Shown here piece after piece: positions 7,191 through 22,642 of a DNA stretch of 64,000 nucleotides (its first letter is position 1; every line of letters starts with the position of its first letter). The notes below the pieces were generated by a model. The model searched no databases, was not told the DNA's origin, and was given only the letters and a program-made list of their open reading frames with translations. This stretch comes from Patescibacteria group bacterium (GTDB taxonomy: Bacteria; Patescibacteriota; Doudnabacteria; UBA920; O2-02-FULL-48-8): positions 91,892 to 155,891 of the forward strand of contig DASUKB010000001.1 of NCBI GenBank assembly GCA_036278915.1, given 5' to 3'. The position numbers were made by a program, and so were the translations under genes.

Positions 7191-8042
7191 ATGAAAGATT
7201 TAAATCAACTAGCCTTGAAATTAAAGACCAAAATTGACGCCCAGCCCTTTATAAAGTGGGCTGGCGGTAAAAGACAGCTTTTAGATGAGCTTGAGAAGCA
7301 CAAGCCTAAATGGTTCAATAGATACTTTGAACCATTTGTTGGCGGTGGAGCTTTATATTTTCGGATTCAGCCAGGGCAAAGTTTTCTGTCGGATATAAAT
7401 CCTGAATTAGTAAATCTATATTTAATAATTCAAAGTAAAGTTGATGAATTAATTTCTGAACTCAAAAAATTAAAAGTATCGGAGAAAGAATTTTATAAAA
7501 TAAGAAATATTGACAGAAAACCGGAATATAGAGAATGGAATAACATAAAAAAAGCTGCAAGATTTATATATCTAAATAAAACTTGCTTTAATGGATTGTA
7601 CAGAATGAACTCCAAAGGCCATTTTAATGTTCCTTATGGTAACCAAAACAATCCAAAAATTCTTGACGAATATAATCTCCGGCAAGTAAATAAATTATTG
7701 CAAAATTCTGATATCAAATGTCAATCCTATTCTGGAATAGAAAAAAATGTAAAGAAAGGTGACTTTGTCTACTTTGATCCTCCTTATGCTCCATTAAACA
7801 AATCTTCTTTTACGAAGTACTTTAAAGACGATTTTGATATTAAAATGCAGGTTGATCTACGAGATTTATGCGACCGTTTAGATAAAAAGGGTGTTTATTT
7901 TATGATTTCAAATTCTCATACATCCTTGATTTTTGGATTGTATAAAAACTATGATATCAAGGTAGTTGACGCAATCAGAGCTATCAACTGCAAGGGTTCT
8001 GGTAGAGGAAAAGTGAAGGAAGTCTTAATAACGAATTACTGA
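7191..8042 (+). CDS. Dam-family (D12 class) N6-adenine DNA methyltransferase
   Basis: The N-terminal SAM motif (KWAGGKRQLL, FEPFVGGGALYF) and the catalytic DPPY (VYFDPPYAP) match the alpha-group m6A MTases of the Dam/DpnM/T4Dam family. Confidence 0.85.
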   Translation: MKDLNQLALKLKTKIDAQPFIKWAGGKRQLLDELEKHKPKWFNRYFEPFVGGGALYFRIQPGQSFLSDINPELVNLYLIIQSKVDELISELKKLKVSEKEFYKIRNIDRKPEYREWNNIKKAARFIYLNKTCFNGLYRMNSKGHFNVPYGNQNNPKILDEYNLRQVNKLLQNSDIKCQSYSGIEKNVKKGDFVYFDPPYAPLNKSSFTKYFKDDFDIKMQVDLRDLCDRLDKKGVYFMISNSHTSLIFGLYKNYDIKVVDAIRAINCKGSGRGKVKEVLITNY

Positions 8043-8043
8043 A

Positions 8044-9297
8044 ATGTCCAACCGAGAACTATGGTCAAAGGTGTTTGAAATAAAAAAATTTGATCTAAAT
8101 AAAGATATTCATTTTATTACCGCAAAGGAGATAAAGCAGATCACTGGCCAAGAGCCAAGGAATATGGCTAAGATGGATAGCACTGCAGATCTGCCGTCTA
8201 TTTTCAAAAATAACGGTTATTTTTTATTACCAATTGAAAATGGGAGATATGAAATTATACGAGGTGAGGGATATCATAAATTAGAAAAAAATAAAAAGAC
8301 AGGTGAATATGATGCAGATATTAAATTTTCTATTACGACTGCTGCCAGGGGTGCAAGTGAGATGGAATATTTAGATTACTCAATTTATACAGGAGTGCTT
8401 GAGAAAATTTTGGGTCTAGGTTCCATGTACCCATCCATCCGAGGGCGTGGCCGAAGCCGAAGTTTTAATTTTTTTGTTAACCGTCATCAAGTGGATGTTT
8501 CAGGTGTCCAACTGGAAGTAGATTCAGGTTTAGAAGCGGAGCATGCCATAGTTCTTATTGAAGCCAAAATGGAGACTCCTGAGGATTTTATTGTCCGACA
8601 ACTTTATTATCCATATAGACATTTTGGCTTGATCTCGCCTTATAAAAAAATTGTCCCAACTTTTTTTACTTATGATTTAGGCAATAAAGTTTATAAATAT
8701 TGGGTTTATGATTTTAAAAACGATGTAGATTACAATTCTATATATTTAAAATCCGTCCATGCTTTTAAAATCATAAGTACCGAACCAGTGGAACTAAGCG
8801 AGCTAAAACCTTTGGAAAACACGCAGATCGCTGATATTCCACAGGCCAATGATCTTGATAAAATTATAACTATGGTTTTTGGTGTTAATGAAAAGATTGA
8901 TGATTATAAAAAAATTGCAAAATATTTTGAGTTTAATGAGCGTCAGAGTAGCTACTATAGACAGGCTGCTGAGTCTTTAGGGTTAATCTCTTCTCATAAA
9001 GGTAAGTATTATCTTACCGATAAAGGGCAGAAATTGATTAAATTGTCTACTTCTGAGAGAAATATATTTTTTATTAAGCTCATCTCGGAATACGAGCTTG
9101 TGAAAAGTAGTTTGGATATTCTTCAGCATAAGTCGGTTTTGACCGATGGAGATTTAGTTAAGCTTGTCCGCCAAAACCATAAAATAAGTGGCAGCACTGT
9201 TATCCGACGCGCTCAATCATTGAAATCTTGGTTAAATTGGATCGCTGAGAGGACAAATACGTTTATAAAAGAAGATAACAAATTTATAGTCTCATAA
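8044..9297 (+). CDS. Putative PD-(D/E)xK restriction-endonuclease-like protein with C-terminal winged-helix domain (probable partner of the Dam-family MTase)
   Basis: Start codon 1 nt after the MTase stop (translational coupling). Candidate nuclease motif ...QLEVDSG...AIVLIEAKME (D...ExK). The C-terminal ~130 aa look wHTH-like (YYRQAAESLGLISSHKGKYYLT). No family can be assigned without a search. Confidence 0.4.
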   Translation: MSNRELWSKVFEIKKFDLNKDIHFITAKEIKQITGQEPRNMAKMDSTADLPSIFKNNGYFLLPIENGRYEIIRGEGYHKLEKNKKTGEYDADIKFSITTAARGASEMEYLDYSIYTGVLEKILGLGSMYPSIRGRGRSRSFNFFVNRHQVDVSGVQLEVDSGLEAEHAIVLIEAKMETPEDFIVRQLYYPYRHFGLISPYKKIVPTFFTYDLGNKVYKYWVYDFKNDVDYNSIYLKSVHAFKIISTEPVELSELKPLENTQIADIPQANDLDKIITMVFGVNEKIDDYKKIAKYFEFNERQSSYYRQAAESLGLISSHKGKYYLTDKGQKLIKLSTSERNIFFIKLISEYELVKSSLDILQHKSVLTDGDLVKLVRQNHKISGSTVIRRAQSLKSWLNWIAERTNTFIKEDNKFIVS

Positions 9298-9319
9298 TTT
9301 TATCCAATAATTTAAATCT

Positions 9320-9649
9320 ATGTCCAATTTGATGTATTTGGTTATCGGAATTGTGGTTGGGTATGTGATTGCCAGGGTTCAGCGCAATTTTGCTGCAAGA
9401 AAAGATTCTTCGCCTGCGGCTCAGAATGATAATTCTCTCAATCAACAACGGGCCGTGGAGCATCAGGCACATCTCGATAAAATTCTTGCAAGTTTCAATT
9501 CTGGAGATGAGATTACCAATGACAAAGTCCAGGCGTTGCTTGGGGTTTCTGATACAACTACTGGTAGATATTTGGAAGAACTAGAGAAGCAGGGGAAGCT
9601 GCAACAGATCGGTACTTTGGGGAAATATGTTAAATATCGAAAAATCTAA
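9320..9649 (+). CDS. Small membrane-anchored winged-helix protein
   Basis: N-terminal TM helix (LVIGIVVGYVIARV), then a predicted helical region ending in a wHTH-like segment (ALLGVSDTTTGRYLEELEKQGKLQQIGTLGKYVKY). Confidence 0.4.
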   Translation: MSNLMYLVIGIVVGYVIARVQRNFAARKDSSPAAQNDNSLNQQRAVEHQAHLDKILASFNSGDEITNDKVQALLGVSDTTTGRYLEELEKQGKLQQIGTLGKYVKYRKI

Positions 9650-9787
9650 CGCCCCATACGGGTGTGGAGAGTTAGAAGAAAAAAATCACTGATTTAAATT
9701 ACTTTCATTTTTATTAAATATACAAATTCAATTGATGAAGCAGATTACACCACATCTTTGGTACGATAAGCAGGCAAGAGGAGTATT

Positions 9788-10288
9788 ATGAACATACTAT
9801 ATGATGTAGCGGCGTGGGGGGCATTCTTTATGGCTGTAGCCGGAGCCGGGGCGGCTCTCACCGGACTTGTATTTGTAAGTATCACTTTGAATTTACAAAA
9901 AATCGTGGGGTCCGCCCGGTTGGTGGGGCGCGCAGAAGAAGCAGTGCTGCATTTGCTCTCAACTGTTATACTTTCTCTCGTCTGTCTTATGCCTGGCATA
10001 TCGGCTAAGCTTACCGGCATATTTGTACTCATACTTATAATCCCGACGTGGATTTTCTTAACTGACCTGCACCGCCGGGCTTACGCGGAGCAAAAGCAGG
10101 AAAACATGCGCTCGTTTATGTCGCGGTTCGTGCCAGCGCAGGTGGCGCTGGTGCCGATTATAATTTCTGGCATAAGCCTTATGGCGCATGGCGGCGGCGG
10201 TTTGGGCTGGCTGGCATTTGGACTTATGGCATCGGTGACAGTGGGCGTGGTGGATGCCTGGGTTTTGACTATAGAGATCATAAGATAA
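9788..10288 (+). CDS. Hypothetical polytopic membrane protein
   Basis: 166 aa with about 5 hydrophobic segments. No recognisable family. Confidence 0.4.
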   Translation: MNILYDVAAWGAFFMAVAGAGAALTGLVFVSITLNLQKIVGSARLVGRAEEAVLHLLSTVILSLVCLMPGISAKLTGIFVLILIIPTWIFLTDLHRRAYAEQKQENMRSFMSRFVPAQVALVPIIISGISLMAHGGGGLGWLAFGLMASVTVGVVDAWVLTIEIIR

Positions 10289-10290
10289 GC

Positions 10291-10548
10291 ATGAGCCCGT
10301 TTTTTGTATACATTATCAAGTGCAAAGACGGGACGCTTTATACCGGCATCACTACGGATTTGGACCGAAGGATTGCGGAGCATAATTCGTCCAAGCTTGG
10401 CGCCAAATACACCCGCGCGCGCCGGCCCGTAAAACTGGCTTATTCCCAAAAATTCCTCACTCGCTCTGCTGCCTGCCGGCAAGAAGCGAGAATCAAGCAA
10501 TTTACGCGTGTGGAAAAGCTTGCGCTCATAAAAAAGAAAAGGCGATAA
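10291..10548 (+). CDS. GIY-YIG nuclease superfamily protein (YhbQ/UPF0213-like)
   Basis: FFVYIIKCKDGTLYTGITTDLDRRIAEHN...AKYTRARRPVKLAY is the GIY-YIG core. Confidence 0.75.
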   Translation: MSPFFVYIIKCKDGTLYTGITTDLDRRIAEHNSSKLGAKYTRARRPVKLAYSQKFLTRSAACRQEARIKQFTRVEKLALIKKKRR

Positions 10549-10620
10549 TTAGAAATTTTTATGGTTATTCGTTGACATGCGTGGTGGTTTTGCTAGAATT
10601 CTCTTTGTGAAGGAGGGTTC

Positions 10621-10830
10621 ATGCAACAGGTCCATTATTTCCACAGCCGAAAGCTTATGGAAGCTTTGGAATTTGCGCGCAAGTCCGGATTCCCCGTAAG
10701 GCTGGCTCCGGCGTGCGCGTACGGTGGATGGGTGAAGCTTGCGGACAACGAAGAAGAGTTCAAGACCCTGTTCAAGAAGGCGGCCCGCAGGTCGCCCGGC
10801 AACGAAGTCGAGGTGCAAATCCTCGCATAG
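10621..10830 (+). pseudogene. Isolated ATP-grasp domain fragment (GC-rich, own promoter/SD/terminator)
   Basis: 69 aa. FPVRLAPACAYGGWVKLADNEEEF...NEVEVQ resembles the B-domain of ATP-grasp carboxylases. The rest of the enzyme is absent. Promoter-like TTGACA-16-TAGAAT at ~10572-10600, a GAAGGAGG SD, and a terminator at ~10841-10875. Confidence 0.3.
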
Positions 10831-10949
10831 ACCAATTTCTGGAAGGTGTCCACCGTGGGCGCCTTCCTTTTTATTTGTGGAAATTACAATTGTCAGTGAA
10901 TTATTTTCTTTGTATGATAAACACAAGCAATTAAGCTGAAGGGATATAT

Positions 10950-11252
10950 ATGTATATAGTGCGCGAAGTGTTTACGGCCAAACCGGGCAATGCGTCCAAA
11001 ATGGCCAAACTTATGAAAAAAGCATTTAAAGCCGACGCTAAAGCTCGCGTGATGACCGACATGGTGGGTCCATACAATACCGTGGTGGTGGAGACAGAAG
11101 TCAAAACCCTGGCGGAGTGGGAACAAACAATGCTGGACATGAAGGCGGGCAAGCCGGACCCAAACATGGACGAGGAAGCCATGAAGGAGATGGCCAACTA
11201 CACCGAGATGTATATGAAAGGCCGACGCGAAATTTATCAGATCCTGGAATAA
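10950..11252 (+). CDS. Small dimeric alpha+beta-barrel-like protein (NIPSNAP/ABM-like)
   Basis: 100 aa. The N-terminal MYIVREVFTAKPG motif resembles NIPSNAP/ABM-fold stress proteins. Weak assignment. Confidence 0.3.
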   Translation: MYIVREVFTAKPGNASKMAKLMKKAFKADAKARVMTDMVGPYNTVVVETEVKTLAEWEQTMLDMKAGKPDPNMDEEAMKEMANYTEMYMKGRREIYQILE

Positions 11253-11256
11253 TTTT

Positions 11257-11619
11257 ATGATTGCAGATTTGGGACGATACGCCAGTCTAGGGTTTTGGGT
11301 GATGCAGGCCGTGGTCGGCATAATTTTTATATACCACAGCGGGTTTAAGATAAAACATCCGTCGCAGATTGCCTCGGCTTACGGCGCACCGGCGTTTGTG
11401 GGCTTGGCCCACGGATTGGTGGAATTGGTAGGCGGGGCTTTGCTGGTGGTAAACTTTTACGCGCAGCCTGTGGCGTTTATATTTGGGCTCATCATGCTTG
11501 GGGCCATATACATGAAGATGTTCAAATGGAACGTCGGGTTCTTCGCGCACGACAAAACCGGCTGGGAATTTGACCTCATCCTGCTGGCCTGTTGTGTGGC
11601 CATAGTCACCAGAGTTTGA
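11257..11619 (+). CDS. DoxX-family membrane protein
   Basis: 120 aa. The hydrophobic pattern with GLVELVGGALLV and the terminal MKMFKW is typical of DoxX. Confidence 0.6.
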   Translation: MIADLGRYASLGFWVMQAVVGIIFIYHSGFKIKHPSQIASAYGAPAFVGLAHGLVELVGGALLVVNFYAQPVAFIFGLIMLGAIYMKMFKWNVGFFAHDKTGWEFDLILLACCVAIVTRV

Positions 11620-11660
11620 TTTACAATTGACAAATCATGTTTGCTTGTTAAAATAAATTT

Positions 11661-12245
11661 ATGATTACGTGGTTTAAAGTAATTGTGTTCTTGCATATAA
11701 TTTCTGCTATCATCTGGATCGGCGCGGTGATCGTGTTGGAAATTTTGGAATGGCAAACCGTGCACGCCACCAGGCGCGAGCAGATCGCATCGCAAACTCA
11801 CCGCCAGAATTGGTTTGGCAAGCGCGTGTTTGCTCCGGCATCTATAGCAACCATTGTGACTGGACTTATTGCTGTGGCTATAGGCAATCCGGCCTTTAAA
11901 CAGTTTTGGGTGATAGTGGCTTTGGTGGGCGTGGCTGTGGCTTTGGGACTTGGCGCGGGCGTCATCGGCCGCACCATGGGTAAGATTTCACAGATGCTGG
12001 CGAATCCGGCCACCACAGATGAACAAATTGAACAGCAGTTTCAGTTCCTTAAGCCGTTTACGTTTCTGGATCTGGCGGTGCTCATATATATTTTGTTTGA
12101 TATGGTTATGCGGCCGGCAACTGCAAACACCGGATTCCTGGGTGTGACTGTCGTATACTTTGCGATCGTGCTTGTATCCATCGCTCTTGCCCGCGCAAAA
12201 TCCCACAGACCAAAAATAGAATTTCACGACCAACCGCACACCTAA
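11661..12245 (+). CDS. Hypothetical integral membrane protein (DUF2269-like)
   Basis: 194 aa with 4-5 TM helices. Terminator hairpin at ~12231-12258. Confidence 0.35.
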   Translation: MITWFKVIVFLHIISAIIWIGAVIVLEILEWQTVHATRREQIASQTHRQNWFGKRVFAPASIATIVTGLIAVAIGNPAFKQFWVIVALVGVAVALGLGAGVIGRTMGKISQMLANPATTDEQIEQQFQFLKPFTFLDLAVLIYILFDMVMRPATANTGFLGVTVVYFAIVLVSIALARAKSHRPKIEFHDQPHT

Positions 12246-12321
12246 CGTGCGGTTTTTTTGACACCCTAAGCGCTTTTTATATTTGTTTGCCAAGCCCTAG
12301 CAATGGTATAATTTTATCAGT

Positions 12322-12588
12322 ATGAAGAAGAATACATTAGTTCTAATAGTTCTCATAATTCTGCCGGTTTTTTTGATAAATGTACTTCAAAACCTAAACA
12401 ATAAATATAAATTCGTATTACTAATAGTTTCTATCTTGTCCAGCTTATGGATTGTTATAAGATCAGCAAGATTTACGAATATAAGAGGTAAGATTATTTG
12501 GATGTCTGTAGGGGGAATATTAGCAGCCTTATTGATTCTATATTTTTGGATTGCTTATTCCTGGGTTCACGCTAATTTTATTTTATAA
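12322..12588 (+). CDS. Small 3-TM protein, tandem paralog 1 (type A, C-term WVHANFIL)
   Basis: MKKNTLVLIVLIILPV... Preceded by a TGgTATAAT extended -10 (12305-12312) and TTGCCA (12287-12292). No SD; likely a leaderless or short-leader mRNA. Confidence 0.55.
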   Translation: MKKNTLVLIVLIILPVFLINVLQNLNNKYKFVLLIVSILSSLWIVIRSARFTNIRGKIIWMSVGGILAALLILYFWIAYSWVHANFIL

Positions 12589-12627
12589 TTATTTGCCAAG
12601 CCCTAGCAATGGTATAATTCTATCTGT

Positions 12628-12906
12628 ATGAAGAAGAATACATTAATCCTTTTATTTTTGATCCTTCTGCCAGTGGGTTTGGGTTTTGCCTATGACGCTT
12701 CTGGTATGTATGACCATACTACTGGAACTAAATTTACGCTCTTATCCATAGCGCTACTTTCTAGCATTTATTTATTTTTTAGATCTTTATCATTAGAAAA
12801 AAGTAACGTCAAGAACTTTTGGGTTGCCATTTCATGTATCTTAATTGCTACTTTATTACTTTTCATTATGGCAGGATATTCGTTTACTAGCCTAGAAATT
12901 GGATAA
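12628..12906 (+). CDS. Small 3-TM protein, tandem paralog 2 (type B, C-term SLEIG)
   Basis: Its 60-nt upstream region is nearly identical to that of paralog 1 (TTGCCA 12593-98, TATAAT 12613-18). Body diverged. Confidence 0.55.
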   Translation: MKKNTLILLFLILLPVGLGFAYDASGMYDHTTGTKFTLLSIALLSSIYLFFRSLSLEKSNVKNFWVAISCILIATLLLFIMAGYSFTSLEIG

Positions 12907-12948
12907 ATGTAAATAATTATTTCGCCACCTAGGGTATATTCTATTGGC

Positions 12949-13221
12949 ATGAAGAAGAATATAATCATATTAATATTTCTTGTTGTGCTACCTACTGTAC
13001 TAGAATTGTTGCCGTTAAACCCAACGGATTATAGCAATAGGACCGCATACAGCCTTTTGACTGTGTCGTTGGTATCGAGCATATGGATATTTGTGCGTAC
13101 ATTAGCATATGAAAAATCTTGGACTAAGTACGCATGGGTAACTGTTTCAGTTATATCAATATTATTTTTTGTAACTTGGATATATATTGGCTACTCGCTG
13201 TCCCATATAGAAATAGGATAA
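12949..13221 (+). CDS. Small 3-TM protein, tandem paralog 3 (type B, C-term HIEIG)
   Basis: MKKNIIILIFLVVLPTV... Upstream GGTATATT -10-like box. Confidence 0.5.
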   Translation: MKKNIIILIFLVVLPTVLELLPLNPTDYSNRTAYSLLTVSLVSSIWIFVRTLAYEKSWTKYAWVTVSVISILFFVTWIYIGYSLSHIEIG

Positions 13222-13273
13222 ATTAAAAAAACAAAATAGCCGAAGGACTTTTTCTAAATTGATATCTAATATT

Positions 13274-13546
13274 ATGAAAATGAAAAGGAATATCTTGATT
13301 TTTATCTTTTTGGTAGTTCTGCCACTCGTTTTGGTAAAAATTATACCAAATCTTAGTAACGAATATAGCTTTGTTGCATTATCGATATCCATATTAGCGA
13401 GTATTTGGATAGTAATAAGGTCTATAAAATTACCAAGTTCCAAAATTAGAATTACTTGGATAATTATAGGAGCATTATTGGTAATTGTATTGAGTTTATA
13501 TTTTTGGCTTGCGTATGCTTGGGTCCATGCAGACTATATTTTATAA
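13274..13546 (+). CDS. Small 3-TM protein, tandem paralog 4 (type A, C-term WVHADYIL)
   Basis: The ORF-track start (13259) is a TTG. The ATG at 13274 (MKMKRNILIF...) aligns with the other copies. Confidence 0.5.
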   Translation: MKMKRNILIFIFLVVLPLVLVKIIPNLSNEYSFVALSISILASIWIVIRSIKLPSSKIRITWIIIGALLVIVLSLYFWLAYAWVHADYIL

Positions 13547-13624
13547 AATTTCATTAAATCATAAATAAAATAGCCATAGGGTCGGTTGTTTGACAAGCCC
13601 CAGCAATGGGTATATTTTATCGAT

Positions 13625-13873
13625 ATGAAGAAAAAGTTGATTATATTTCTAAGTTTGGTAGTACTACCCGATTTAATTGGTTATTGGTTTTATAATACAA
13701 GAATTTATACTGTAACTTCATGGGTTTCGATTCTGGCGTCACTGTGGTTGTTAGTTTTAAGTATTAAAGAGAGAAATTGGGTTCATTTTAGTATTTTTCT
13801 TTTAATCTTTGTTGCGGCAGTAATGTATTTCTTAATTGGTATATCGATTAGTCACATAGAAATAGGCGGATAA
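13625..13873 (+). CDS. Small 3-TM protein, tandem paralog 5 (type B, C-term HIEIGG)
   Basis: The ORF-track start at 13586 lies inside the promoter (TTGACA 13589-94, 16-nt spacer, TATATT 13611-16). The ATG at 13625 (MKKKLIIF...) aligns with the family. Terminator ~13896-13925. Confidence 0.5.
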   Translation: MKKKLIIFLSLVVLPDLIGYWFYNTRIYTVTSWVSILASLWLLVLSIKERNWVHFSIFLLIFVAAVMYFLIGISISHIEIGG

Positions 13874-13945
13874 AATACCGAAAACAAAAAACCAAAACAA
13901 AAATAGCCACAGGGGCTATTTTTTTCGTAATTAATTTCTAATTTT

Positions 13946-16690
13946 ATGAAACATACTTTGAAAATATTAATACCAGCAGTTTTTGTATGTTTGTTTTTTG
14001 CCCACACTGCCAACGCGCAAGTCAACTTCCGTATCCATAGCTTCGGCATGATCTTGCAGCCAAATGACGCGCCAGGCCAGTACACCTTTTTGATTAAACA
14101 AAAGATTAATGGCGAGTATGTGGACCTTATAAACAAGCCCTTGGATGTTCACCTTACTGATCTTGTAAGCTTGTTCGCATCTCTTGATAATGAAGATTAC
14201 CTTATTACGATGGATTTGCCGCCCGGTGCGGTGCTGGACAGCGTGGATTGTACGGATTCGAATTCTTTAAGTACGTTCATCCCAATCCCGGGAGGTGTAC
14301 ACGCGCTCCCGCAAGGTACGGGTAATCTTCTTTGTACTTTTACTACTTCAAAAGCTGCGACAAGCAAGACACCTGTTCTAATCGTTCCAGGAGTACTTGG
14401 AACTAATATTAAAAAAGGTGACGATGTCCTATGGCTAAATCCACTTAAGTCAATAGTGGATCCAGCTGATCATTTCATGAATTCTTTGTCTTTCAGCACT
14501 GATTTAAATCCGGTCGATCCCGATGTAACCTTTGGATCTGTCATAGGTAAGGTTGGCGTGGGTAGAATTAGTTATGATTACACTCAAAGTTTACGGCAAG
14601 AGTTGATAGACCAGCATTATACCGAAGGTGTTGATCTGTTTACCTTTCCATATGATTGGCGTTATGGCGTTTCTGGTAAAGATTCAAGTGGAGATTTTGT
14701 AAATCTCAAGGCATTTGAGGGCCAGATGAATTATATTTTGACACAGACCGGTGCGGGCAGGTCAGCTGGTAAGGTGGATGTAATTGCCCATTCAACAGGC
14801 GGTTTAATCGTTAAGTAGTATATTCAAGAACATCCGTCGGATAATCATATAGATAAGGCTGTTTTTGTGGGTACCCCAAACTTAGGCGCACCCAAAGCTT
14901 ACAAAGTTCTTATCGCTGGAGATAACTTTACTATACAGGGATTGAGCGATAGTGAGATGAAATTTTTGGCTCAAAACATGCCAGTAGTTTACGATTTAGC
15001 CGCAGACCAGAATTATTATAATCTGGCGGGTAGTCCAATGACTATCCATTTCGACCCAGCGTTAGGTAAACCAGATACTCAGGATACTCTAACCGAAATG
15101 ACTAACCAGTTAGAAAATAATGATCTAATTAACTCATTGGCGATGTCGGATAGTCAGGTCTTACATGACTCTTTGGATAATTTGGATATTTCTAGCACGA
15201 ATGTGGATACTTACAATATTATTGGTTGCAAAACAGGTACTTTTGGAAGTTTTACAGCAAATTTGGGTATAAATAATGATATAGAATCGTTTGATTTTCC
15301 TAAAATCACGCCTGGTGATGGGACGGTCCCGCTTTTGAGCGCTAAAAGTATAAATGCTTCCGATGATCATACCTTTTATGCGCCGGGGGTTCAGCATAGT
15401 AGTTTACTTTCTGCTGATGGACCAATGCAGGAGATCGTAAATATTGTAAGCGGCAGTAATTTGGATGTCGGCAAGGTTGTATCGCAATCCAGCCTTAATG
15501 ATGACCCTTCTCAATGCCAACTCAAGAAAGGGAAATTTTTGGGAATCTTCAGCCCTGTTTCTATAAGCATTACGGATCAGGAAGGGCAGATTTCGCAAGT
15601 TCTAGATGACGGCAGCATAGAAAATGACATTCCCGGAGCAGATTATGAAGTCTGGGGCGAACATAAGTATATTTATCTTCCCACAGATGCCGGCCAGCAG
15701 TATTCGATTGAACTGACAGGCACAGGAACCGGGACTTTTACTCTCAAGGATGAGGATATTGAAGATAATAATGTTACTGGAACGGAGGTGTTCAGTAATC
15801 TGCCAGTGACGACCAGCCTCAAAGGCCAGGTCGTGTTAGCTGATACCTCTTCGCTTGAATTGGATAACAATGGGGATGGTGTATTTGATCAAACACTCTT
15901 GCCGACTTCGGTTGTAAATGGCGAGCAATCCGACGATATAACTCCTCCCATTACCTCGGCGGATATTTCTGGCATCCAAGGACAGCCAAATTATTTCCGC
16001 AGTAACGTTGCTATCAAATTATCCGCGCAGGATTTTGTGGATCCGGCCAAGCCAAATCAAACCTCCGGCATGCTGAATACGCACTTCAGTTTAGACGGAT
16101 CAGAGATAGAAAATTACCAAGTACCAATTACCGTTTCTTCGGAAGGCGCGCACACAATCCGATTTTTCTCAACGGATCGGGCAGGGAACAATGAGCCCGA
16201 GCAAACAATCAACTTTGTTGTGGACAAAACTGCGCCTGAATTTAGTATCCAATTTGATCCCAGCAGCCAAGATATTAAATTTACGGGCACAGACAATTTG
16301 ACTCCGGCTGAAAATGTAAGCCTCCAGGACAATGATGATCAGATAATAATTAGCGATCAAGCCGGCAACACTTCAGAAATTATCCTGTCGAGCAAGGATC
16401 GCAAGAAAAAAATGACTGCCGAGATTGAAGGACTTTTGTATAACGGCGTGGCGGCGGATTTGAGCAAAAATAAATTTAGTTTCAGCTGGCAGTACGACAA
16501 ACAAGGCCAGCTCAAAAAACTTACGCAAAGCGCGCAGGATAAGAAAAACTTTAGAATTGATGCCACTTTCGACGGGCAGCAAACCCGTTTTCGCGGAAAT
16601 GGCAACCAAGGAAAAATAAACGAGCTGCGGCCTGGACTAGTCTCCCTAAAAATTCGCACGCAGACAGGGGATCTGATGTGGTCGTATTAA
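13946..16690 (+). pseudogene. Secreted LCAT/PGAP1-like alpha/beta-hydrolase (lipase/acyltransferase) with C-terminal beta-rich domains, interrupted by one in-frame TAG (14816-14818)
   Basis: Signal peptide MKHTLKILIPAVFVCLFFAHTANA. PVLIVPGVLGTNIKKGDDVLWLNP (the LCAT-family PVvLvPG motif). Nucleophile elbow AHSTGGLIVK, then TAG, then YIQEHP...KAVFVGTPNLGAPKAYK in the same frame. Later GDGTVPLLSAKS and HSSLLS. The two ORF-track entries (13946..14818, 14867..16690) share one frame. Confidence 0.6.
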
Positions 16691-16762
16691 TTGCTTGCGT
16701 AAATATTTGAATAAAAACATCTGCTTGACCGCGGGTGTTTTTATTTGTGCTAATATAAATGT

Positions 16763-18010
16763 ATGCTGAGCAAACAAAAACAAATTCTTACATTTGACCA
16801 AAGGCTGGAGGCGCTCAAACCCAGTGCGCAGGAATTGCTGCTCAAAAACCGCCGGTTTGAAGGCGAGCACCAGTACACCGTGCCGTCGCCTGCGACATAT
16901 CCGTACCAGTGGCTCTGGGATTCGTGTTTCCATGCCATAGTCCTCACGCATTTCAATGCCGAGGATGCCAAAAAAGAATTATTATCCCTGGTGGCGCGGC
17001 AGTTTCCAAACGGCATGATCCCGCATATGATCTACTGGAAAATGGCGGAAGTTATACGCGTGGCGTGGGGCACGGAGGGCACTTCAAGCATCACCCAGCC
17101 GCCGCTTCTGGCCCAGGCTGTGGAGCGCATTTGGAATTTGGACCACGACAAAGCATTTTTGGAAAATATCTACCCGCATCTTTATCATTTTTACAATTAT
17201 CTGCTCACTGACCGCGACCCCAGGCACCATCACCTTATCGGCATTATAAATCCGGATGAGTCGGGGGAGGATAATTCGCCGCGGTTTGACATACCGCTGG
17301 GCATGGGGCCGAAACAGACGCTGGAGGAAAATTTCCAAAGGCGCATGGAGCTTATAGACAAAAATAAAGATTGCAAATTTGACGCGCCGTTCTGCATGAA
17401 GAATTTTTTCTGGGTCAAGGATGTGCCGTACAATGCGATTATGATAGTAAATTTGCGCGCTCTGGCTTCGCTTGCAGCCGCGCTGGGCAATGCTGATGAC
17501 GAAGTTTACTTCGGCCAGCAGGCCGACGAGGTGGCGCTCTCCATGCGCGCGCGCATGTTTGAAGATGGTTTGTTCTGGTCCACGTATGGCCAGGATTACA
17601 AAAAAATTAAAGTCAAAACCTGGGCCATATTTGCGCCATTGATTGCCAAAGTCCTCACGCAGGATGAGGCGGAAAAACTTGTGACCGAATATTTGTTTAA
17701 TCCCCGCGAATTTGGCGCCAGGTTTGGCGTGCCTACAGTGTCCAAGTCCGAACCCTCGTATGACCCGAAGGGTTTTTGGCGCGGCCCCACGTGGATAGCC
17801 ATAAATTGGTTTATCTATCACGGCCTGCTGAATTATAATTTTCAGGCAGCGGCAGACCGCGTGCGAGACGCAAGCTTGCGGCTGGTGGAGGCTTCGGGAT
17901 TCCGCGAACAATTCCACCCGGACACAGGCGAGGGGGCCGGCGCTTTGGAATTCACCTGGGGCACTTTGGTTTTGGATATGACTCCAAAAATTAATCCAAA
18001 CACTTTATGA
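16763..18010 (+). CDS. (alpha/alpha)6-barrel glycoside hydrolase, GH63-like (mannosyl-/glucosyl-glycerate hydrolase family)
   Basis: YPYQWLWDSCFHAI is the WDSxF motif of GH63/MGH-type enzymes. 415 aa. Confidence 0.5.
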   Translation: MLSKQKQILTFDQRLEALKPSAQELLLKNRRFEGEHQYTVPSPATYPYQWLWDSCFHAIVLTHFNAEDAKKELLSLVARQFPNGMIPHMIYWKMAEVIRVAWGTEGTSSITQPPLLAQAVERIWNLDHDKAFLENIYPHLYHFYNYLLTDRDPRHHHLIGIINPDESGEDNSPRFDIPLGMGPKQTLEENFQRRMELIDKNKDCKFDAPFCMKNFFWVKDVPYNAIMIVNLRALASLAAALGNADDEVYFGQQADEVALSMRARMFEDGLFWSTYGQDYKKIKVKTWAIFAPLIAKVLTQDEAEKLVTEYLFNPREFGARFGVPTVSKSEPSYDPKGFWRGPTWIAINWFIYHGLLNYNFQAAADRVRDASLRLVEASGFREQFHPDTGEGAGALEFTWGTLVLDMTPKINPNTL

Positions 18011-18486
18011 ACATTGCCATAGATCTTATAGCTGCCGTACTTATAATTTTCGGCACCATAGGTTCAGTGTTGCCGTTTCTGCCAGGGCTGCCTCTGGCCT
18101 GGCTCGGGCTTTTGGTGTACGCCTGGTACTGGGACTTTGCCCGCATCGGGGCTTTGGGACTTTTGGTGTTTGCGATTCTTATAATCTTAAGCCTGGTGGT
18201 GGACGTGGCGGCTCCAGCAATTGCAGCTCGCGGCCATAGGGCCTCGCGTTACGGCTTGGTAGGTGCAAGTTTGGGCGGAATTCTCGGCGTAATTTTCCTG
18301 GGACCGATCGGCGTGCTGTTTGGGCCGTTTGTGGGATCGTTTGTGGGCGAGGTAATGCATGCCAAAACCACAAAACAGGCTTTGCGCGTGGCTTGGGCAT
18401 CCCTGGGCGGGCTCATTATAAGTTCCGGCTTTAAATTGATCATCGGTTTCAGCATGCTGGTGTATTTTGTAATCAAACTTTTTTGA
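18007..18486 (+). CDS. DUF456-family membrane protein
   Basis: IIFGTIGSVLPFLPGLPLAWLGLLVYAW matches DUF456. 4 TM segments. Confidence 0.65.
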   Translation: MNIAIDLIAAVLIIFGTIGSVLPFLPGLPLAWLGLLVYAWYWDFARIGALGLLVFAILIILSLVVDVAAPAIAARGHRASRYGLVGASLGGILGVIFLGPIGVLFGPFVGSFVGEVMHAKTTKQALRVAWASLGGLIISSGFKLIIGFSMLVYFVIKLF

Positions 18487-18487
18487 G

Positions 18488-19093
18488 ATGGAACTTTCGG
18501 CCAGGGAACAGCGGATATTTAAAAAATTAAATACGCCGGCAAAAATTCAGGATTTTGTGCATCGGATTCCCACCAATTTTGAAAAGCACGGGCAGACGCT
18601 GCATTCTCCTCGAGTTTTGCTGGAGAAAAATGTGGCCCACTGCATGGAGGCCGCGCTTTTTTCCGCCGCCGTGCTTTGGTATCATGGGCAGCCGCCGCAG
18701 CTTTTGGATTTGCGCACCATCAAAGGCGACTTCGACCACGTGGTGGCGCTGTTTCGTTATCGGGGCCGGTGGGGCGCGATAAGCAAATCCAACCACGCGG
18801 TCCTGCTTTATCGCGATCCTATATACAAAACGGTGCGCGAGCTGGCCGTGTCGTATTTCCATGAATATTTCCTGCAGGACGGCCGCAAGACTCTGCGCGA
18901 ATATTCTGATGCCTTTAATTTGCGCCGATTTGGGCAGGATTGGATTACGGCCGAAGACGACCTTTGGCATTTGGACCGCGCGCTGGATAAATCTCCCCAT
19001 CATAAGCTTTTGGACCGCGACCATATACTACAACTTCGGCCAGCGGACCGAATTCAAATCCGCGCCGGAAATTTGGAAATATTCCATAAATAA
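18488..19093 (+). CDS. Transglutaminase-like cysteine-peptidase-fold protein
   Basis: Putative Cys-His-Asp triad: C in NVAHCMEAALFSAAVL, H/D in DFDHVVALFRYRGRWGAISKSN. Confidence 0.45.
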   Translation: MELSAREQRIFKKLNTPAKIQDFVHRIPTNFEKHGQTLHSPRVLLEKNVAHCMEAALFSAAVLWYHGQPPQLLDLRTIKGDFDHVVALFRYRGRWGAISKSNHAVLLYRDPIYKTVRELAVSYFHEYFLQDGRKTLREYSDAFNLRRFGQDWITAEDDLWHLDRALDKSPHHKLLDRDHILQLRPADRIQIRAGNLEIFHK

Positions 19094-19162
19094 AGCGGTG
19101 GTTCATTCTCCGGAAATTTGTTATGATACTTTTGGGTTTAGTATTAAAACGGAGAATTTTCT

Positions 19163-19882
19163 ATGAAATACAAGATAAAGCTCGTAAAAAAAGAAGAGGT
19201 GGCTGAAGGCACGATGGCGTTTTTTTATACCAAACCAGAAGGGTTTGTTTTTAAGTCCGGACAGACCATGGATTTAACTCTTATAAATCCGGCGGAAACG
19301 GATGCGGAAGGCAACACCCGCACTTTTTCCATAATCCAAACTCCGCTTGAAGAGACGCTCGGCAATGCCACGCGCATGCGCGACACGGCATTTAAGCGCG
19401 TGCTCAAAAATATGCCGGAAGGTACGGAGCTCGAGATGGAAGGGCCGTTTGGATCGTTTACGCTGCACAATGATTCCAGCAAACCGGCCGTGATTTTGGC
19501 CGGGGGAATCGGAATTACGCCTTTTTATAGCATTGCCAAATTTGCCGCGGCCCAAAAATTACCCCACAAAATTTATCTGTTTTATTCCAATCGCAGGCCC
19601 GAGGACTCAGCGTTCCTGTCGCAGCTGCAAGAACTGCAAACGCAGAACCCCAACTTCAAGCTTGTCGCAACCATGACCGATATGGAAAAAAGCTCGCAGA
19701 AGTGGGACGGGGAAACGGGTTACATAACCAAAGAAATGATCGCAAAATATGTACCGGATTTGCCAAGCGCTATTTCTTACATCGCCGGGCCGCCGAGCAT
19801 GGTGGCCGCTATGCGCAAAATTCTAAACGATGCGCAAGTTAACGACGACAACATCCGAACCGAGGAATTTACCGGCTACTAA
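19163..19882 (+). CDS. FAD/NAD(P)-binding oxidoreductase (ferredoxin-NADP reductase-like)
   Basis: RTFSI (the RxYS FAD motif), ILAGGIGITP (the NAD-binding GGxGxxP) and a C-terminal EEFTGY. Confidence 0.7.
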   Translation: MKYKIKLVKKEEVAEGTMAFFYTKPEGFVFKSGQTMDLTLINPAETDAEGNTRTFSIIQTPLEETLGNATRMRDTAFKRVLKNMPEGTELEMEGPFGSFTLHNDSSKPAVILAGGIGITPFYSIAKFAAAQKLPHKIYLFYSNRRPEDSAFLSQLQELQTQNPNFKLVATMTDMEKSSQKWDGETGYITKEMIAKYVPDLPSAISYIAGPPSMVAAMRKILNDAQVNDDNIRTEEFTGY

Positions 19883-19896
19883 TTTTAAGGAGGAGT

Positions 19897-20784
19897 ATGG
19901 AAAGTATGGAACACGAACCTAAACGAGATTTTGCAACAGAGTTTGCCAATTACGAAAAAAAGAAAGAGCAGCAAGCGCAGTCAGCGGAAATCCCCGGATA
20001 CAAAACGGAGCAAGATAATTCCGCCAAGTTTGACGTGGAGCCGATAGGCAACAGCTGGACGCGGAAACTCTATGACGGTGATTTTTTCCAGATGCGCGCG
20101 GACTCCAAATTTCCCGCTTTGAATACGGTGTTTGTGCAGACGCGAGATCTCAATACCGGTGCGGACAATCCCGGTGATCTGGGCGGCGGGGAGACGGATA
20201 AGCACCTCATCTACGAAGGGCTGTCTCGCGTGGCTGCGGATGCGGTCATGGCCGGCGCCAACACGATCCGCGGCTCCGGAGTGGTGCTTTCGGTTTGGCA
20301 TCCGGAACTGGTGGCCTTGCGACGCGAATTGGGATTGCCCAGGCATCCGGCGCAAATCGTGGTCACGGAGTCAGGCAGAGTTGATATGGATTCGGAGCTG
20401 ATGTTCAATATCCCGCAGGTGCCGGTGTACGTGCTCACGTCATCCCGTGGCGCGGAAGTGCTCAAACCATATGTGGAGTCCCGGCCATGGGTACGCGTCT
20501 ATTCCGATGAAACGGTAGACATGAGCAAGCTGCTGGCGCAATTATCTGCCGAACAGAAGATTTCCAGAATTTCGGTAATCGGCGGCCGGACTCTGACATC
20601 TTCTCTTATCGATGGCGGGTTGGTGAAGGATTTGTATCTCACGACTTCGGCCATCAACGGGGGCGAACCGCACACTCCGTTTTACATCGGCCAGAAGATA
20701 CTCCGGATGGACCGGGTACTGCGCAAAACTGGACTTGGCAAAGAAGAAGGCGTGGTGTTTGAACACCTTTCACTTGTTCCCTAA
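19897..20784 (+). CDS. RibD C-terminal domain (dihydrofolate-reductase-like) protein
   Basis: The pattern ...GRTL.SSLIDGGLVKDLYLTTS...G resembles the RibD_C/DHFR-like reductase fold. Weak. Confidence 0.4.
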   Translation: MESMEHEPKRDFATEFANYEKKKEQQAQSAEIPGYKTEQDNSAKFDVEPIGNSWTRKLYDGDFFQMRADSKFPALNTVFVQTRDLNTGADNPGDLGGGETDKHLIYEGLSRVAADAVMAGANTIRGSGVVLSVWHPELVALRRELGLPRHPAQIVVTESGRVDMDSELMFNIPQVPVYVLTSSRGAEVLKPYVESRPWVRVYSDETVDMSKLLAQLSAEQKISRISVIGGRTLTSSLIDGGLVKDLYLTTSAINGGEPHTPFYIGQKILRMDRVLRKTGLGKEEGVVFEHLSLVP

Positions 20785-20857
20785 TACTTCCAACTGGCCG
20801 CAAGAACCTATCTCTTGCGGCTTTTCTTTTTGTCATATAAAAGTTAGAATAAGCATT

Positions 20858-22003
20858 ATGAGTTTTGAAATTTCCAAAAAAGATGAAAGCACTAAGGCCC
20901 GGACCGGAATTATTCACACCGCGCATGGAGACGTGCATACGCCCGTGTTTTTGCCCATCGGCACCAAGGGCGCCATCAAATCCATAGCCGCCGAGGAGCT
21001 CAAGTTTTGGGGCGCAGAAATGATTCTGGCAAACACTTACCATCTCTGGCAGCGTCCAGGAGACGCACTTATTGCCAAAGCAGGCGGCCTGCATAAATTT
21101 ATGAACTGGAAAGGGGCTATATTCACGGACTCCGGCGGGTTTCAGGTTTTTTCACTTGCCAAAATGGTAAAAGTCACAGACACCGGCGTAACGTTCCAAT
21201 CCGATATCGACGGTTCTACGCATACGCTTACGCCAGAGTCATCGGTACAGATCCAGCTCAATTTGGGATCAGATGTGGCACTCGTGCTGGATGAATTTCC
21301 CGGATTTCCCGCCACCGAAAAACACGTAAAAGAAACCGTAGCCAGGACCACGGCCTGGGCAAAGCGCGCCGCGCTGGAACACAACAAGCTTGCTGGCTCT
21401 TCGCTTAATCCCGGCCAGATGCTGTGGGGCATAATACAAGGCGCGACTTTCAAAAAACTGCGCAAACAATCCGCGGAAGAAATTTCTGCCATCGGTTTCC
21501 CAGGATTCGCCATAGGCGGCGTGGCTGTGGGGGAACCGCCCGAAAAAATGTACCAAGCCGTGGAGGACTCAATTCCTTATCTGGATGAAGATAAACCAAA
21601 GCATTTGCTGGGCGTGGGCACGCCGGAACAAATTGTGCAAGGGGTTGCCCGTGGCTGCGACAGTTTTGACTGCGTCATCCCCACGCGCGAAGCCCGCCAC
21701 GGCAAACTTTATATAAACCTCAAACCAGGCGAAGGCGAAGGTTATACTACCATCAATATCGATAATGAAAAATTCAAAGAAGATTTTTCCGCGGTAGACA
21801 ACACCTGCAATTGTTATTTGTGCATGAATTTCACGCGAGCGTACTTGCGGCATTTGTTTGCCACCAAAGAGCCTTTGGGAATTCGCCTGGCGACCATGCA
21901 CAATCTGCGGTTTTATTTAAACCTTATGCAGACCGTGCGCACGGCCATCGAAACCGGAGGCTTTGACCACTTGCACAAGAGTTATAAGGAGCATAATATT
22001 TAG
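20858..22003 (+). CDS. tgt: Queuine tRNA-ribosyltransferase
   Basis: ARTGIIHTAHGDVHTPVFLPIGTKGAIKS, zinc site CNCYLC, and LGIRLATMHNLRFY. The ATG at 20858 (MSFEISKK) is preferred over the extended ORF-track start at 20735. Confidence 0.9.
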   Translation: MSFEISKKDESTKARTGIIHTAHGDVHTPVFLPIGTKGAIKSIAAEELKFWGAEMILANTYHLWQRPGDALIAKAGGLHKFMNWKGAIFTDSGGFQVFSLAKMVKVTDTGVTFQSDIDGSTHTLTPESSVQIQLNLGSDVALVLDEFPGFPATEKHVKETVARTTAWAKRAALEHNKLAGSSLNPGQMLWGIIQGATFKKLRKQSAEEISAIGFPGFAIGGVAVGEPPEKMYQAVEDSIPYLDEDKPKHLLGVGTPEQIVQGVARGCDSFDCVIPTREARHGKLYINLKPGEGEGYTTINIDNEKFKEDFSAVDNTCNCYLCMNFTRAYLRHLFATKEPLGIRLATMHNLRFYLNLMQTVRTAIETGGFDHLHKSYKEHNI

Positions 22004-22024
22004 GTCAATAAGGAGGTTGCTGAT

Positions 22025-22402
22025 ATGCGCGTTGACTGGGACCGCTACAACGGGCTCGTGTCTATGACTATCACCGGCAAACTCGGTCGGGAAACGGATC
22101 CGCAGCAAAAGGATTTATCGGAATATGTTTCCGACCTTTCCGAAGCAGACCGCAAGGCTCTGGTGTTTGATCTATCCAATGTGACCGGCATCGATACCTA
22201 CGGCATAGGCCAGATGATCTACTGTCAGCAGCTGATTCTCGAATCCGGCGGGAAATCCTGCTGGGTCCTGCCCAAAGAATCAGCCTCGTACGCCAAACTC
22301 CGGCATTTGTTGGACCGGATGCAACTATCAAAGGTGTTCATCTTCTGCGACACCATCCAAGACGGCTACCAGAAGATGTCTGCCAACAAAGGAACCGCTT
22401 AG
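22025..22402 (+). CDS. STAS-domain protein (anti-sigma-factor antagonist-like)
   Basis: VFDLSNVTGIDTYGIGQMI is the SpoIIAA-like STAS core. Terminator at 22393-22433. Confidence 0.6.
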   Translation: MRVDWDRYNGLVSMTITGKLGRETDPQQKDLSEYVSDLSEADRKALVFDLSNVTGIDTYGIGQMIYCQQLILESGGKSCWVLPKESASYAKLRHLLDRMQLSKVFIFCDTIQDGYQKMSANKGTA

Positions 22403-22525
22403 GCCCCTAAGGAGCAGAAGCGGTTTTATTTTTCTGTCGTACATGTTAGACTATATGCAAATAAGAAGTGGCGCAGCCAGCCTGGCTTAAAGTCAGGCAA
22501 CCAGTGTCATATTCAAAAGGAATTT

Positions 22526-22642
22526 ATGCAAGAATCAAAATTTGATCTGATGGACAAAGTAATCTCGCTTGCCAAAAGACGGGCCGCCCACAAATCTAAT
22601 CCTTTGACGGGCGAGCCTCGTCTTTTTGTTTTTAAAAAATAA
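22526..22642 (+). other. 38-codon upstream ORF re-encoding the GlyRS N-terminus, followed by a terminator hairpin
   Basis: MQESKFDLMDKVISLAKRR... versus GlyRS MKQEQKFDLMDKVISLAKRR... Ten synonymous differences and one nonsynonymous over 18 aligned codons. A hairpin plus T-run lies at ~22598-22635. Confidence 0.4.

Follow-up and report, generated by a model that had tools for sequence, protein, structure and literature searches.

A single in-frame TAG interrupts the gene for a predicted secreted LCAT/LPLA2-type hydrolase in a patescibacterial genome and most likely represents a recent nonsense mutation

Results and Discussion

The gene described here encodes a large, predicted secreted lipase and is interrupted by one in-frame TAG codon within its catalytic domain. 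We consider it likely that one base substitution to a nonsense codon has inactivated the gene, and that it is a young pseudogene or a null allele that is dominant in the sampled population. The stop codon would thus most likely reflect an ordinary, very recent mutation rather than a special decoding mechanism. The gene is located on a 386-kb contig (385,993 bp) of a metagenome-assembled genome (MAG), and all positions refer to the window, i.e. the whole stretch of 64 kb that was analysed.

An open reading frame with one internal stop codon

Positions 13946-16690 can be translated in one frame into 915 codons, with one internal stop at codon 291 and a terminal TAA. The original prediction that the ORFs 13946..14818 (290 aa) and 14867..16690 (607 aa) share a frame, with the TAG at 14816-14818 as the sole break, was confirmed by this translation. 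Direct reading of the sequence gave the codons GTT AAG TAG TAT ATT around the stop. Further stops or frameshifts were not found in the 623 codons downstream of the TAG (14819..16690). When both ORFs are joined, they encode a protein of 914 residues with a signal peptide. No other adjacent ORFs in the 64-kb window share a frame and also belong to one protein family. In the NCBI annotation, the N-terminal part is listed as the hypothetical protein VFX17_00615 and the downstream part as the 613-aa hypothetical protein VFX17_00620; a joint annotation as a single disrupted gene would be more appropriate. The features of the region are as follows.

13946..14017, + strand: Sec-type signal peptide MKHTLKILIPAVFVCLFFAHTANA, with cleavage expected after ANA (read from the translation)
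13946..14815, + strand: N-terminal 290 codons, comprising the signal peptide, a beta-rich domain and the first half of an LCAT-type alpha/beta-hydrolase including Ser283
14582..15004, + strand: Pfam LCAT domain (PF02450), residues 213-353, spanning the TAG (joined protein, profile search)
14792..14794, + strand: codon TCA of the nucleophile Ser283 in the A-H-S-T-G elbow (family alignment; aligns to the Ser of LPLA2)
14816..14818, + strand: in-frame TAG, codon 291 (sequence, translation and homolog alignment)
14819..16690, + strand: 623 in-frame codons and TAA, comprising the rest of the hydrolase domain, followed by beta-sandwich domains of about 400 aa in total
15317-15319, + strand: codon of Asp458 in the GDGTV motif
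15395-15397, + strand: codon of His484 in the QH motif
16061..16222, + strand: OmpL47-type beta-barrel / bacterial Ig-like domain, residues 706-759 (NCBIfam NF047446)

The stop codon splits an LCAT-type catalytic domain

The joined protein showed one continuous match to the LCAT profile (PF02450) with 58 bits and an E-value of 1.3e-15 (cut-off 21 bits). When the halves were searched alone, they matched the adjoining profile positions 69-135 and 148-203, where the N-terminal half scored 18.9 bits, which is below the cut-off of 21, and the C-terminal half 27.4 bits. The protein had originally been labelled LCAT/PGAP1-like. The LCAT part of this label is supported, whereas the match to the PGAP1-like profile (PF07819) scored only 14.2 bits (E-value 0.036; cut-off 24.3 bits) and was limited to the generic nucleophile-elbow region (residues 260-317). 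A PGAP1-like identity is not supported, as the score is below the Pfam gathering threshold.

In a family alignment of 30 sequences, Ser283, Asp458 and His484, as well as the motifs AHSTGG, GDGTV and QH, were invariant. The downstream frame has thus retained the Asp and His motifs, and the stop follows the nucleophile elbow and precedes the next conserved block, both as originally described. The motif around Ser283 aligns to AHSMG of LPLA2 (4x90), and the counterpart of GDGTV, DGDGTV, falls in a segment that is below the threshold. The description of the product as a protein of about 915 aa with a signal peptide, an LCAT-type hydrolase and beta-rich C-terminal domains also proved to be correct. 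By eye, the signal peptide has a basic N-terminus, a hydrophobic core and an A-x-A motif. The N-terminal beta-rich domain gave a weak prealbumin-like match (SpaA_4), and the C-terminal region gave a match to NF047446 of 54.3 bits (cut-off 40) besides weak matches to Big_13 and CHB_HEX_C_1. Judged from its sequence, the product of the intact gene is a Sec-secreted LCAT/LPLA2-type serine hydrolase and putatively a phospholipase A or acyltransferase, which may have an enzymatic role in lipid scavenging or attack.

To place the stop in a structure, the AlphaFold2 model of P0002 (pLDDT 91), which is the closest homolog among the matches listed although it is only about 50% identical, was taken as a stand-in for the window protein. 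This model matched LPLA2 (4x92 and 4x90) with Foldseek E-values of 4e-15 to 2e-14 and target-normalised TM-scores of 0.72-0.73, which indicates a predicted LCAT/LPLA2 fold for this homolog. The column of the TAG corresponds to Arg308 of P0002, which lies inside the modelled helix 301-312 that follows the nucleophile. Since the TAG separates Ser283 from Asp458 and His484, the 290-aa product should be inactive.

Homologs are uninterrupted and the lesion appears to be young

The search yielded more than 400 homologs, most of which come from the tiny, symbiotic Patescibacteria. The original prediction had called for a comparison with orthologs, and this comparison turned out to be informative: the best 119 homologs are uninterrupted and about 900-990 aa long, and at the column of the TAG they mainly have Lys (98 of the 119), Gln (9), Arg (5) or Glu (5). 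None of these 119 proteins has a stop at this column and, at the DNA level, the same is true for 80 GTDB loci and 80 metagenome loci (0/160). A recurrent or programmed stop at this position was therefore ruled out. As Lys, Gln and Glu codons (AAG, CAG and GAG) are each one base change away from TAG, a single substitution would explain the interruption. The premature stop thus lies in a conserved domain of a gene whose homologs are intact, and the sense codons of this column are one substitution away.

Columns that are conserved in the family have been kept equally on both sides of the TAG, namely 35 of 39 upstream and 108 of 117 downstream (92%). As the closest homolog is only 50% identical, conservation was judged from these columns and from secondary lesions rather than from dN/dS. 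Of the possible downstream substitutions, 3.7% would create a stop codon. None is present, which suggests that neutral divergence since the lesion amounts to at most about 4%. Together, the absence of lesions from the downstream codons and the conservation of 92% of the family-conserved residues suggest that the lesion is young. It should be noted that an intact and well-conserved downstream frame would also fit a gene that is still functional, either because the TAG is read through or because the population also carries an intact allele.

In GTDB genome and JGI metagenome contigs, exact-pattern scans that allowed any codon at this position did not detect strain variants or intact alleles. A tblastn search did not reveal a compensating paralog in the 64-kb window, and none of the best 120 homologs is contributed by the same 386-kb contig. 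Synteny with the locus of the closest homolog is absent, except for a nearby TGT gene.

Lesions were also observed elsewhere in the family. The family member L003 (P0113; ENA ERZ25039518 contig_4859, 868 kb) is split by an in-frame TAG (L003 5989-5991) into parts of 294 and 650 aa. The column of this TAG, which often holds Lys in the family, lies 15 alignment columns upstream of the present TAG column, across the nucleophile from it. The detection of this case was biased towards breaks near or before the present TAG, because only long C-terminal fragments were among the matches listed. For a distant family member, the contigs L146 and L140 from sibling samples are 99.92% identical and show a TAA/GAA polymorphism. 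A further family member, L105, carries a frameshift. The lesions in the family are thus sporadic and non-recurrent, as they differ in both site and type (TAG, TAA and frameshift). That a second TAG split occurs only 15 columns away could hint at something systematic, but this case is subject to the detection bias described above.

TAG is a regular stop codon in the window

TAG terminates 18 of the about 80 crudely predicted genes in the window (TAA 45, TAG 18 and TGA 17). These include the genes for ribosomal proteins S7 and L22, MetRS, an AI-2E transporter and a GDPD enzyme. For S7, L22, the AI-2E transporter and the GDPD enzyme, the TAG falls at the full length of the respective Pfam profiles. 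The earlier view that TAG is a normal stop codon in this DNA therefore holds, but the DUF1059 gene that had been given as an example was not located by a crude motif scan. An alternative genetic code was rejected for the window, as all three stop codons are used and conserved genes end in TAG at full length. The only recoding known to us in Patescibacteria is that of UGA to Gly in Gracilibacteria and Absconditabacteria, and TAG reassignment is not known from this group. Only tRNA-Leu(CAA) and tRNA-Pro(GGG) were found in the 64-kb window, and a suppressor tRNA with a CUA anticodon was not among them. Likewise, no stimulatory RNA structure was detected at the TAG, as the region 14790-14920 folds no better than shuffled sequences (-23.8 kcal/mol versus a shuffled mean of -24.6; z = 0.21).

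A nonsense substitution versus other explanations

Could the TAG be absent from most of the population? It might stem from an error in sequencing or consensus calling, or belong to an allele that is in the minority or co-dominant, in which case the population would be mostly intact with a sense codon that is probably AAG. This view is in line with the origin of the sequence from a MAG, with the flawless downstream frame that is as conserved as the upstream part, and with the L140/L146 pair, which indicates that nonsense and sense alleles coexist in populations. However, the TAG site is neither a homopolymer nor a repeat, and a contig of an independent Logan assembly (SRR25158533) is 100% identical to the NCBI third-party (TPA) MAG over 18,993 bp, TAG included, although both may stem from the same reads. 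Because the two assemblies agree base for base, an assembly error is an unlikely source of the TAG. Logan contigs are built from exact k-mers that were seen repeatedly, so that the TAG would have needed multiple accurate reads. Taken together, we regard an artefact or a minor allele as rather unlikely, and the same applies to the sequencing or assembly error that the original prediction had offered as an option.

Another option offered at the time, programmed readthrough, fares worse. A UAG that is programmed or tolerated to be read as Lys, Gln or Tyr by a near-cognate or suppressor tRNA would lead to low, possibly regulated levels of the full-length lipase. The intact downstream ORF would fit this idea, as would the TAG of L003 at an often-Lys column, and a membrane-active enzyme that may be toxic to its producer would be a plausible target for dampened expression. 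On the other hand, none of the inspected proteins or DNA loci has a stop at the present column, the TAGs of the two split genes occupy different columns, and the remaining family lesions are a TAA and a frameshift. In addition, TAG terminates conserved genes within the window, the window tRNAs do not read it, the flanking RNA is not unusually folded, and TAG reassignment is not known from this group. Readthrough is therefore very improbable. It would be just as surprising if the TAG were tolerated or exploited to provide a trickle of a full-length, potentially self-toxic secreted phospholipase through a near-cognate or unannotated suppressor tRNA, with L003 as an independent instance of the same strategy. 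A functional split gene appears to be hardly credible. Here, the ORFs would be translated separately, with ribosomes reinitiating at or close to GTG 14867, and an active enzyme would form from the reassembled fragments. The NCBI annotation does list two separate proteins, an AAGG is present 8 nt upstream of GTG 14867, and L003 is split in a similar manner. However, the AAGG and the GTG lie within the codons for the conserved residues D-K-A-V-F-V-G, so that protein conservation accounts for their presence, and a split architecture was not found family-wide in the 80 GTDB and 80 metagenome loci. Moreover, the break would interrupt a helix of the alpha/beta core according to the model, a start at GTG 14867 would leave out 16 conserved residues, some of them in the next beta-strand, and the signal peptide is confined to the N-terminal fragment, so that the pieces would reach different compartments. 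The fold position, the lost residues and the export topology led us to reject the split gene.

The recent nonsense mutation, which had also been among the original options besides strain heterogeneity, is thus the explanation that is supported, possibly in the form of a segregating allele. We infer the ancestral codon, the loss of function and the age of the lesion. The substitution was most likely from AAG (Lys) to TAG, or else from CAG or GAG to TAG. Translation would end at codon 291, in the helix that directly follows the nucleophile elbow. The truncated product of 290 aa would be exported with Ser283 but without Asp458 and His484 and with roughly half of the core fold missing, and should thus have no catalytic activity. 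Reinitiation further downstream would give a product with neither the signal peptide nor the nucleophile. The lesion would be very young, either as a fixed young pseudogene or as a null allele dominating the sampled population. In ordinary bacterial nonsense pseudogenes, too, a single premature stop breaks a conserved ORF that is undamaged in other respects, orthologs are intact and the stop codon is used normally elsewhere in the genome. The present case differs from them in nothing but its occurrence in a reduced Patescibacteria genome. Pseudogenes are not known to be common in such genomes. We found no paper on LCAT-family proteins or nonsense pseudogenes in Patescibacteria.

Relation to known enzymes and possible role of the family

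The closest solved relatives by sequence and fold are LPLA2 (PLA2G15, 4x90) and LCAT (4xwg, 5txf). They share with the present family the alpha/beta-hydrolase core, the motifs A-H-S-x-G and G-D-G-T-V and the catalytic His, and all are secreted. The protein matches 4x90 with a phmmer E-value of 7e-6, and the P0002 model superposes on LPLA2 at a TM-score of 0.73 and on LCAT at 0.65-0.69. However, the sequence identity is only about 18-20%, and the present protein is bacterial with about 914 aa, compared to about 380 aa for the animal enzymes. Unlike LPLA2 and LCAT, it carries an additional beta-domain at its N-terminus and, at its C-terminus, Ig-like/OmpL47-type beta-domains of about 400 aa in total, and the present copy is interrupted by a stop. 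Phospholipase A or acyltransferase activity on glycerophospholipids is a putative function.

The next structural neighbour is Tle4 (4r1d; Foldseek E-value 1.4e-6, TM-score 0.48), an antibacterial phospholipase effector of the Pseudomonas aeruginosa type VI secretion system. Tle4 is also a lipase-fold enzyme, with which one bacterium attacks another bacterium's membranes, and such a role had initially been proposed for the present protein. However, its structural similarity is much weaker, and it is delivered by the type VI system and has a cognate immunity protein, whereas the present gene encodes a Sec signal peptide and no immunity gene was recognised.

Patescibacteria are thought to depend on lipids from other cells. 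For the predatory CPR bacterium Vampirococcus lugosii, which has no phospholipid synthesis, a predicted secreted phospholipase has been proposed to serve host-membrane disruption and lipid supply (PMC8080830). The present protein resembles this phospholipase by description, and the function of the latter is a hypothesis from the literature.

The stop codon itself is of minor importance. It means that one MAG is probably devoid of a working copy of one secreted lipase. The family is the more useful by-product of this analysis. Large enzymes of about 900-990 aa with a signal peptide, a predicted LCAT/LPLA2 fold and Ig-like domains are widespread in Patescibacteria, and an intact member such as P0002 would be a reasonable candidate for studies on how these bacteria acquire or attack host membrane lipids. 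The probable loss or polymorphism of the present gene suggests that some populations can do without this enzyme or face fluctuating selection on it.

The interrupted lipase gene

Translation of 13946-16690 gives 915 codons with codon 291 as the sole internal stop, which confirms that two lipase ORFs in one common frame, 13946..14818 (290 aa) and 14867..16690 (607 aa), are split by a single TAG at 14816-14818 (GTT AAG TAG TAT ATT at 14810-14824). Of the ORF pairs in the window that are adjacent and share a frame, this was the only one derived from a single protein family, the remaining pairs being distinct operon neighbours. In the NCBI record the halves appear as separate hypothetical proteins and not as one disrupted gene, and the length assigned to the second half means that a non-canonical ATA at 14849 was taken as its start.

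Features of the lipase gene
13946-14818, +, VFX17_00615 (HEX5429566.1), NCBI hypothetical protein, 290 aa, first half
14849-16690, +, VFX17_00620 (HEX5429567.1), NCBI hypothetical protein, 613 aa, second half
14792-14794, +, Ser283 codon
15317-15319, +, Asp458 codon
15395-15397, +, His484 codon

Each half matched the Pfam LCAT profile (PF02450) at adjoining positions, 69-135 and 148-203, and the joined protein, in which Lys replaces the stop, gave a single match across codon 291 (residues 213-353; 58 bits, cut-off 21). The LCAT part of the LCAT/PGAP1-like label in the original prediction therefore holds, whereas its PGAP1 part is unsupported, since the joined protein scored 14.2 bits against a cut-off of 24.3. 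NCBIfam places an OmpL47-type beta-barrel domain at residues 706-759 of the joined protein, and the N-terminus, MKHTLKILIPAVFVCLFFAHTANA followed by QV, looks like a Sec signal peptide. The database search returned more than 400 homologs, of which the best 119 are 40-50% identical, about 900-990 aa long and all uninterrupted; the named sources among them are Patescibacteria (Nomura-, Doudna- and Staskawiczbacteria). Ser283 (AHSTGG), Asp458 (GDGTV) and His484 are invariant in a 30-sequence alignment. The nearest solved structure by sequence is lysosomal phospholipase A2 (LPLA2; 4x90, E 7e-6). Fold comparison used P0002, the closest homolog, in place of the window protein; its AlphaFold model (pLDDT 91) resembled LPLA2 (E about 1e-14, TM 0.72-0.73) and LCAT (TM 0.65-0.69), followed by the T6SS phospholipase Tle4.

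In the best 119 of the more than 400 homologs, the column of the TAG holds Lys (98), Gln (9), Arg (5), Glu (5), Ser (1) or Asp (1), and the codons AAG, CAG and GAG are each one substitution away from TAG. The column corresponds to Arg308 of the P0002 model, within helix 301-312 that immediately follows the nucleophile Ser300. With the TAG inside this helix, termination at codon 291 would yield an exported 290-aa fragment that keeps the Ser and is missing the Asp, the His and half of the core fold.

Interruptions elsewhere in the family

P0113 (650 aa), one of the listed family hits, starts at the nucleophile motif. At its locus (L003), which is also present in Logan assembly ERR10755945 (L004), a 294-aa ORF precedes it in frame, and one TAG separates the two ('...QTGIG*VNLVAHSTGG').

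Split lipase gene of P0113
5107-7953, TAG at 5989-5991, on ENA ERZ25039518 contig_4859 (868-kb ENA/NCBI contig)

This TAG occupies a variable, often Lys, column 15 alignment columns upstream of the window TAG, and the nucleophile Ser lies between the two stops. The proximity of the two is weak evidence for recurrence, since a C-terminal fragment is long enough to rank among the 120 listed hits only if the break comes no later than about residue 300. Recurrence was surveyed by looking for stops and frameshifts in the matched frames of 80 GTDB-genome and 80 JGI-metagenome family loci. All the GTDB loci were uninterrupted, and two of the JGI loci were broken: L146 carries a TAA around query position 600, and L105 a frameshift at about 3447-3483 in an A-rich run (..NRKK / KKMMMAEIKS..; near query position 812-825 and near the C-terminus). 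The latter lies near a contig end and reflects either a homopolymer error or a genuine slip. L146 (Ga0187878_1000784) and L140 (Ga0187870_1000614), from JGI sibling metagenomes, are 99.92% identical, with 4 mismatches in 4,860 bp, and codon 2902-2904 of this distant LCAT-family gene is TAA in L146 versus GAA in L140. This shows directly that in natural populations nonsense alleles of the lipase family either segregate or are called in error. Lesions in the family are rare (about 1-2%) and unlike in type and position.

Origin of the stop codon

The source record is an NCBI third-party-assembled MAG (locus tags VFX17_, contig of 385,993 bp). The TAG is unlikely to be an assembler artefact, because a 54-kb contig of the independent Logan assembly of SRR25158533 is 100% identical to window 4867-23859 (18,993 bp), TAG and both ORFs included, and because the site is neither a homopolymer nor a repeat. 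Exact-pattern scans that allowed any triplet at the codon detected no further copy of the locus in the GTDB genome and JGI metagenome collections, and the protein search had no homolog between 50% and 100% identity among the matches listed; an intact same-species allele is therefore not available. A consensus error has a small probability, shared with the case of a mixed population whose intact allele is present alongside the TAG allele or in the majority; the TAA/GAA pair of L146 and L140 speaks for such coexistence.

No sign of special decoding of TAG was found in the window. Crude gene calls end with TAA 45, TAG 18 and TGA 17 times; TAG terminates ribosomal proteins S7 and L22, an AI-2E transporter and a GDPD enzyme exactly at the ends of their Pfam profiles, and it likewise terminates the MetRS and TGT genes. 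The original prediction was thus right that TAG is an ordinary stop here, although the DUF1059 gene it cited was not located in a crude Cys-motif scan of small ORFs. The 64-kb window encodes only tRNA-Leu(CAA) and tRNA-Pro(GGG), with no suppressor tRNA (tRNA-CUA), and RNA folding around the stop was no better than that of shuffled sequence (z = 0.21). UAG with U after it and a Lys codon before it is not known as a leaky context in bacteria, and in Patescibacteria no stop reassignment is known other than UGA=Gly in Gracilibacteria and Absconditabacteria. Functional readthrough or suppression, which could account for a downstream part without stops, is consequently very unlikely. Even less credible is a functional split gene: restart at GTG 14867 would leave out 16 conserved residues, the signal peptide and the nucleophile, and the AAGG upstream of this GTG belongs to conserved D-K-A codons.

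In our view the gene for this secreted hydrolase of LCAT/LPLA2-like type is likely a pseudogene of recent origin or a young nonsense allele. Columns conserved at 90% or more in the family were kept to the same degree on both sides of the stop, at 35 of 39 positions upstream and 108 of 117 positions downstream. In the downstream 1,869 nt, 3.7% of the possible single substitutions are stop-creating and no stop is present, the probability of which is 0.5 at 1% neutral divergence and 0.05 at 4.3%. Either inactivation happened very recently, or selection still acts on the downstream part via an intact population allele or readthrough; at 50% identity, the nearest homolog is too distant for dN/dS to be computed downstream.

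Genomic setting and implications

The lipase gene and its 2-kb upstream flank have an atypical base composition. Across 13946-16690, GC3 is 0.39-0.43, compared with 0.54-0.62 in its neighbours (0.62 in the adjacent trehalase-like GH gene, 16763-18010; 0.54 in EF-G, 51894-54026), and window 12-14 kb has 33% GC. The gene may therefore have been acquired horizontally or be evolving fast. It lies 3' of a restriction-modification/defence island and five tandem small membrane-protein paralogs. Together with the composition, this position suggests that the region is variable and accessory, so that loss of a gene here would be no surprise.

Regions upstream of the lipase gene
5160-10548, +, defence island, low GC (34-37%)
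12322-13873, +, five tandem paralogous genes for 88-95-aa proteins, 33% GC, directly upstream

The island encodes a Mrr-like type IV restriction nuclease, DUF3892 and GIY-YIG proteins, a CapH/CapP-like regulator pair (HTH and M78-peptidase), and a type II Dam-like methyltransferase adjoining a type II restriction enzyme (DUF6996/6997/7226). The paralogs (MKKN..ILIFLVVLP..) contain two or three hydrophobic segments, end in sequences such as HIEIG or HA(N/D)(F/Y)IL and match nothing in Pfam; 65-nt stretches conserved at 93.8% identity are repeated at 12275-12339 and 12581-12645.

Several other genes of the window were recorded. An 80-aa ORF at 44280-44522 (+) matches the 23S rRNA-intervening-sequence protein family at profile positions 4-50 of 106 only and overlaps the mscL start (44477-44869) in a different frame; this ORF may be a further remnant of a truncated gene. 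A multi-PAS GGDEF-EAL protein of 848 aa (c-di-GMP turnover) is encoded at 45028-47574 (+). An 819-aa fusion of a GT2 glycosyltransferase with a TMEM260-like/DUF2723 protein O-mannosyltransferase-like part (25405-27864, +) and a nearby weakly PMT_2-like membrane protein (28715-30400, +) form a possible protein-glycosylation cluster. The complete glycerophosphodiester phosphodiesterase (GDPD) gene at 58097-58774 (+), immediately ahead of a run of short genes with L22 (61519-62133), could process phospholipase products, which bears on lipid or head-group scavenging.

Our literature search found no paper on this LCAT-type family in Patescibacteria. Judging from fold and motifs, the intact family would plausibly act as an extracellular phospholipase or acyltransferase on foreign membranes, given that lipid dependence has been proposed for CPR bacteria and a secreted phospholipase has been discussed for Vampirococcus (PMC8080830). 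The interrupted lipase is real but ordinary, a disrupted new member of an already known kind.
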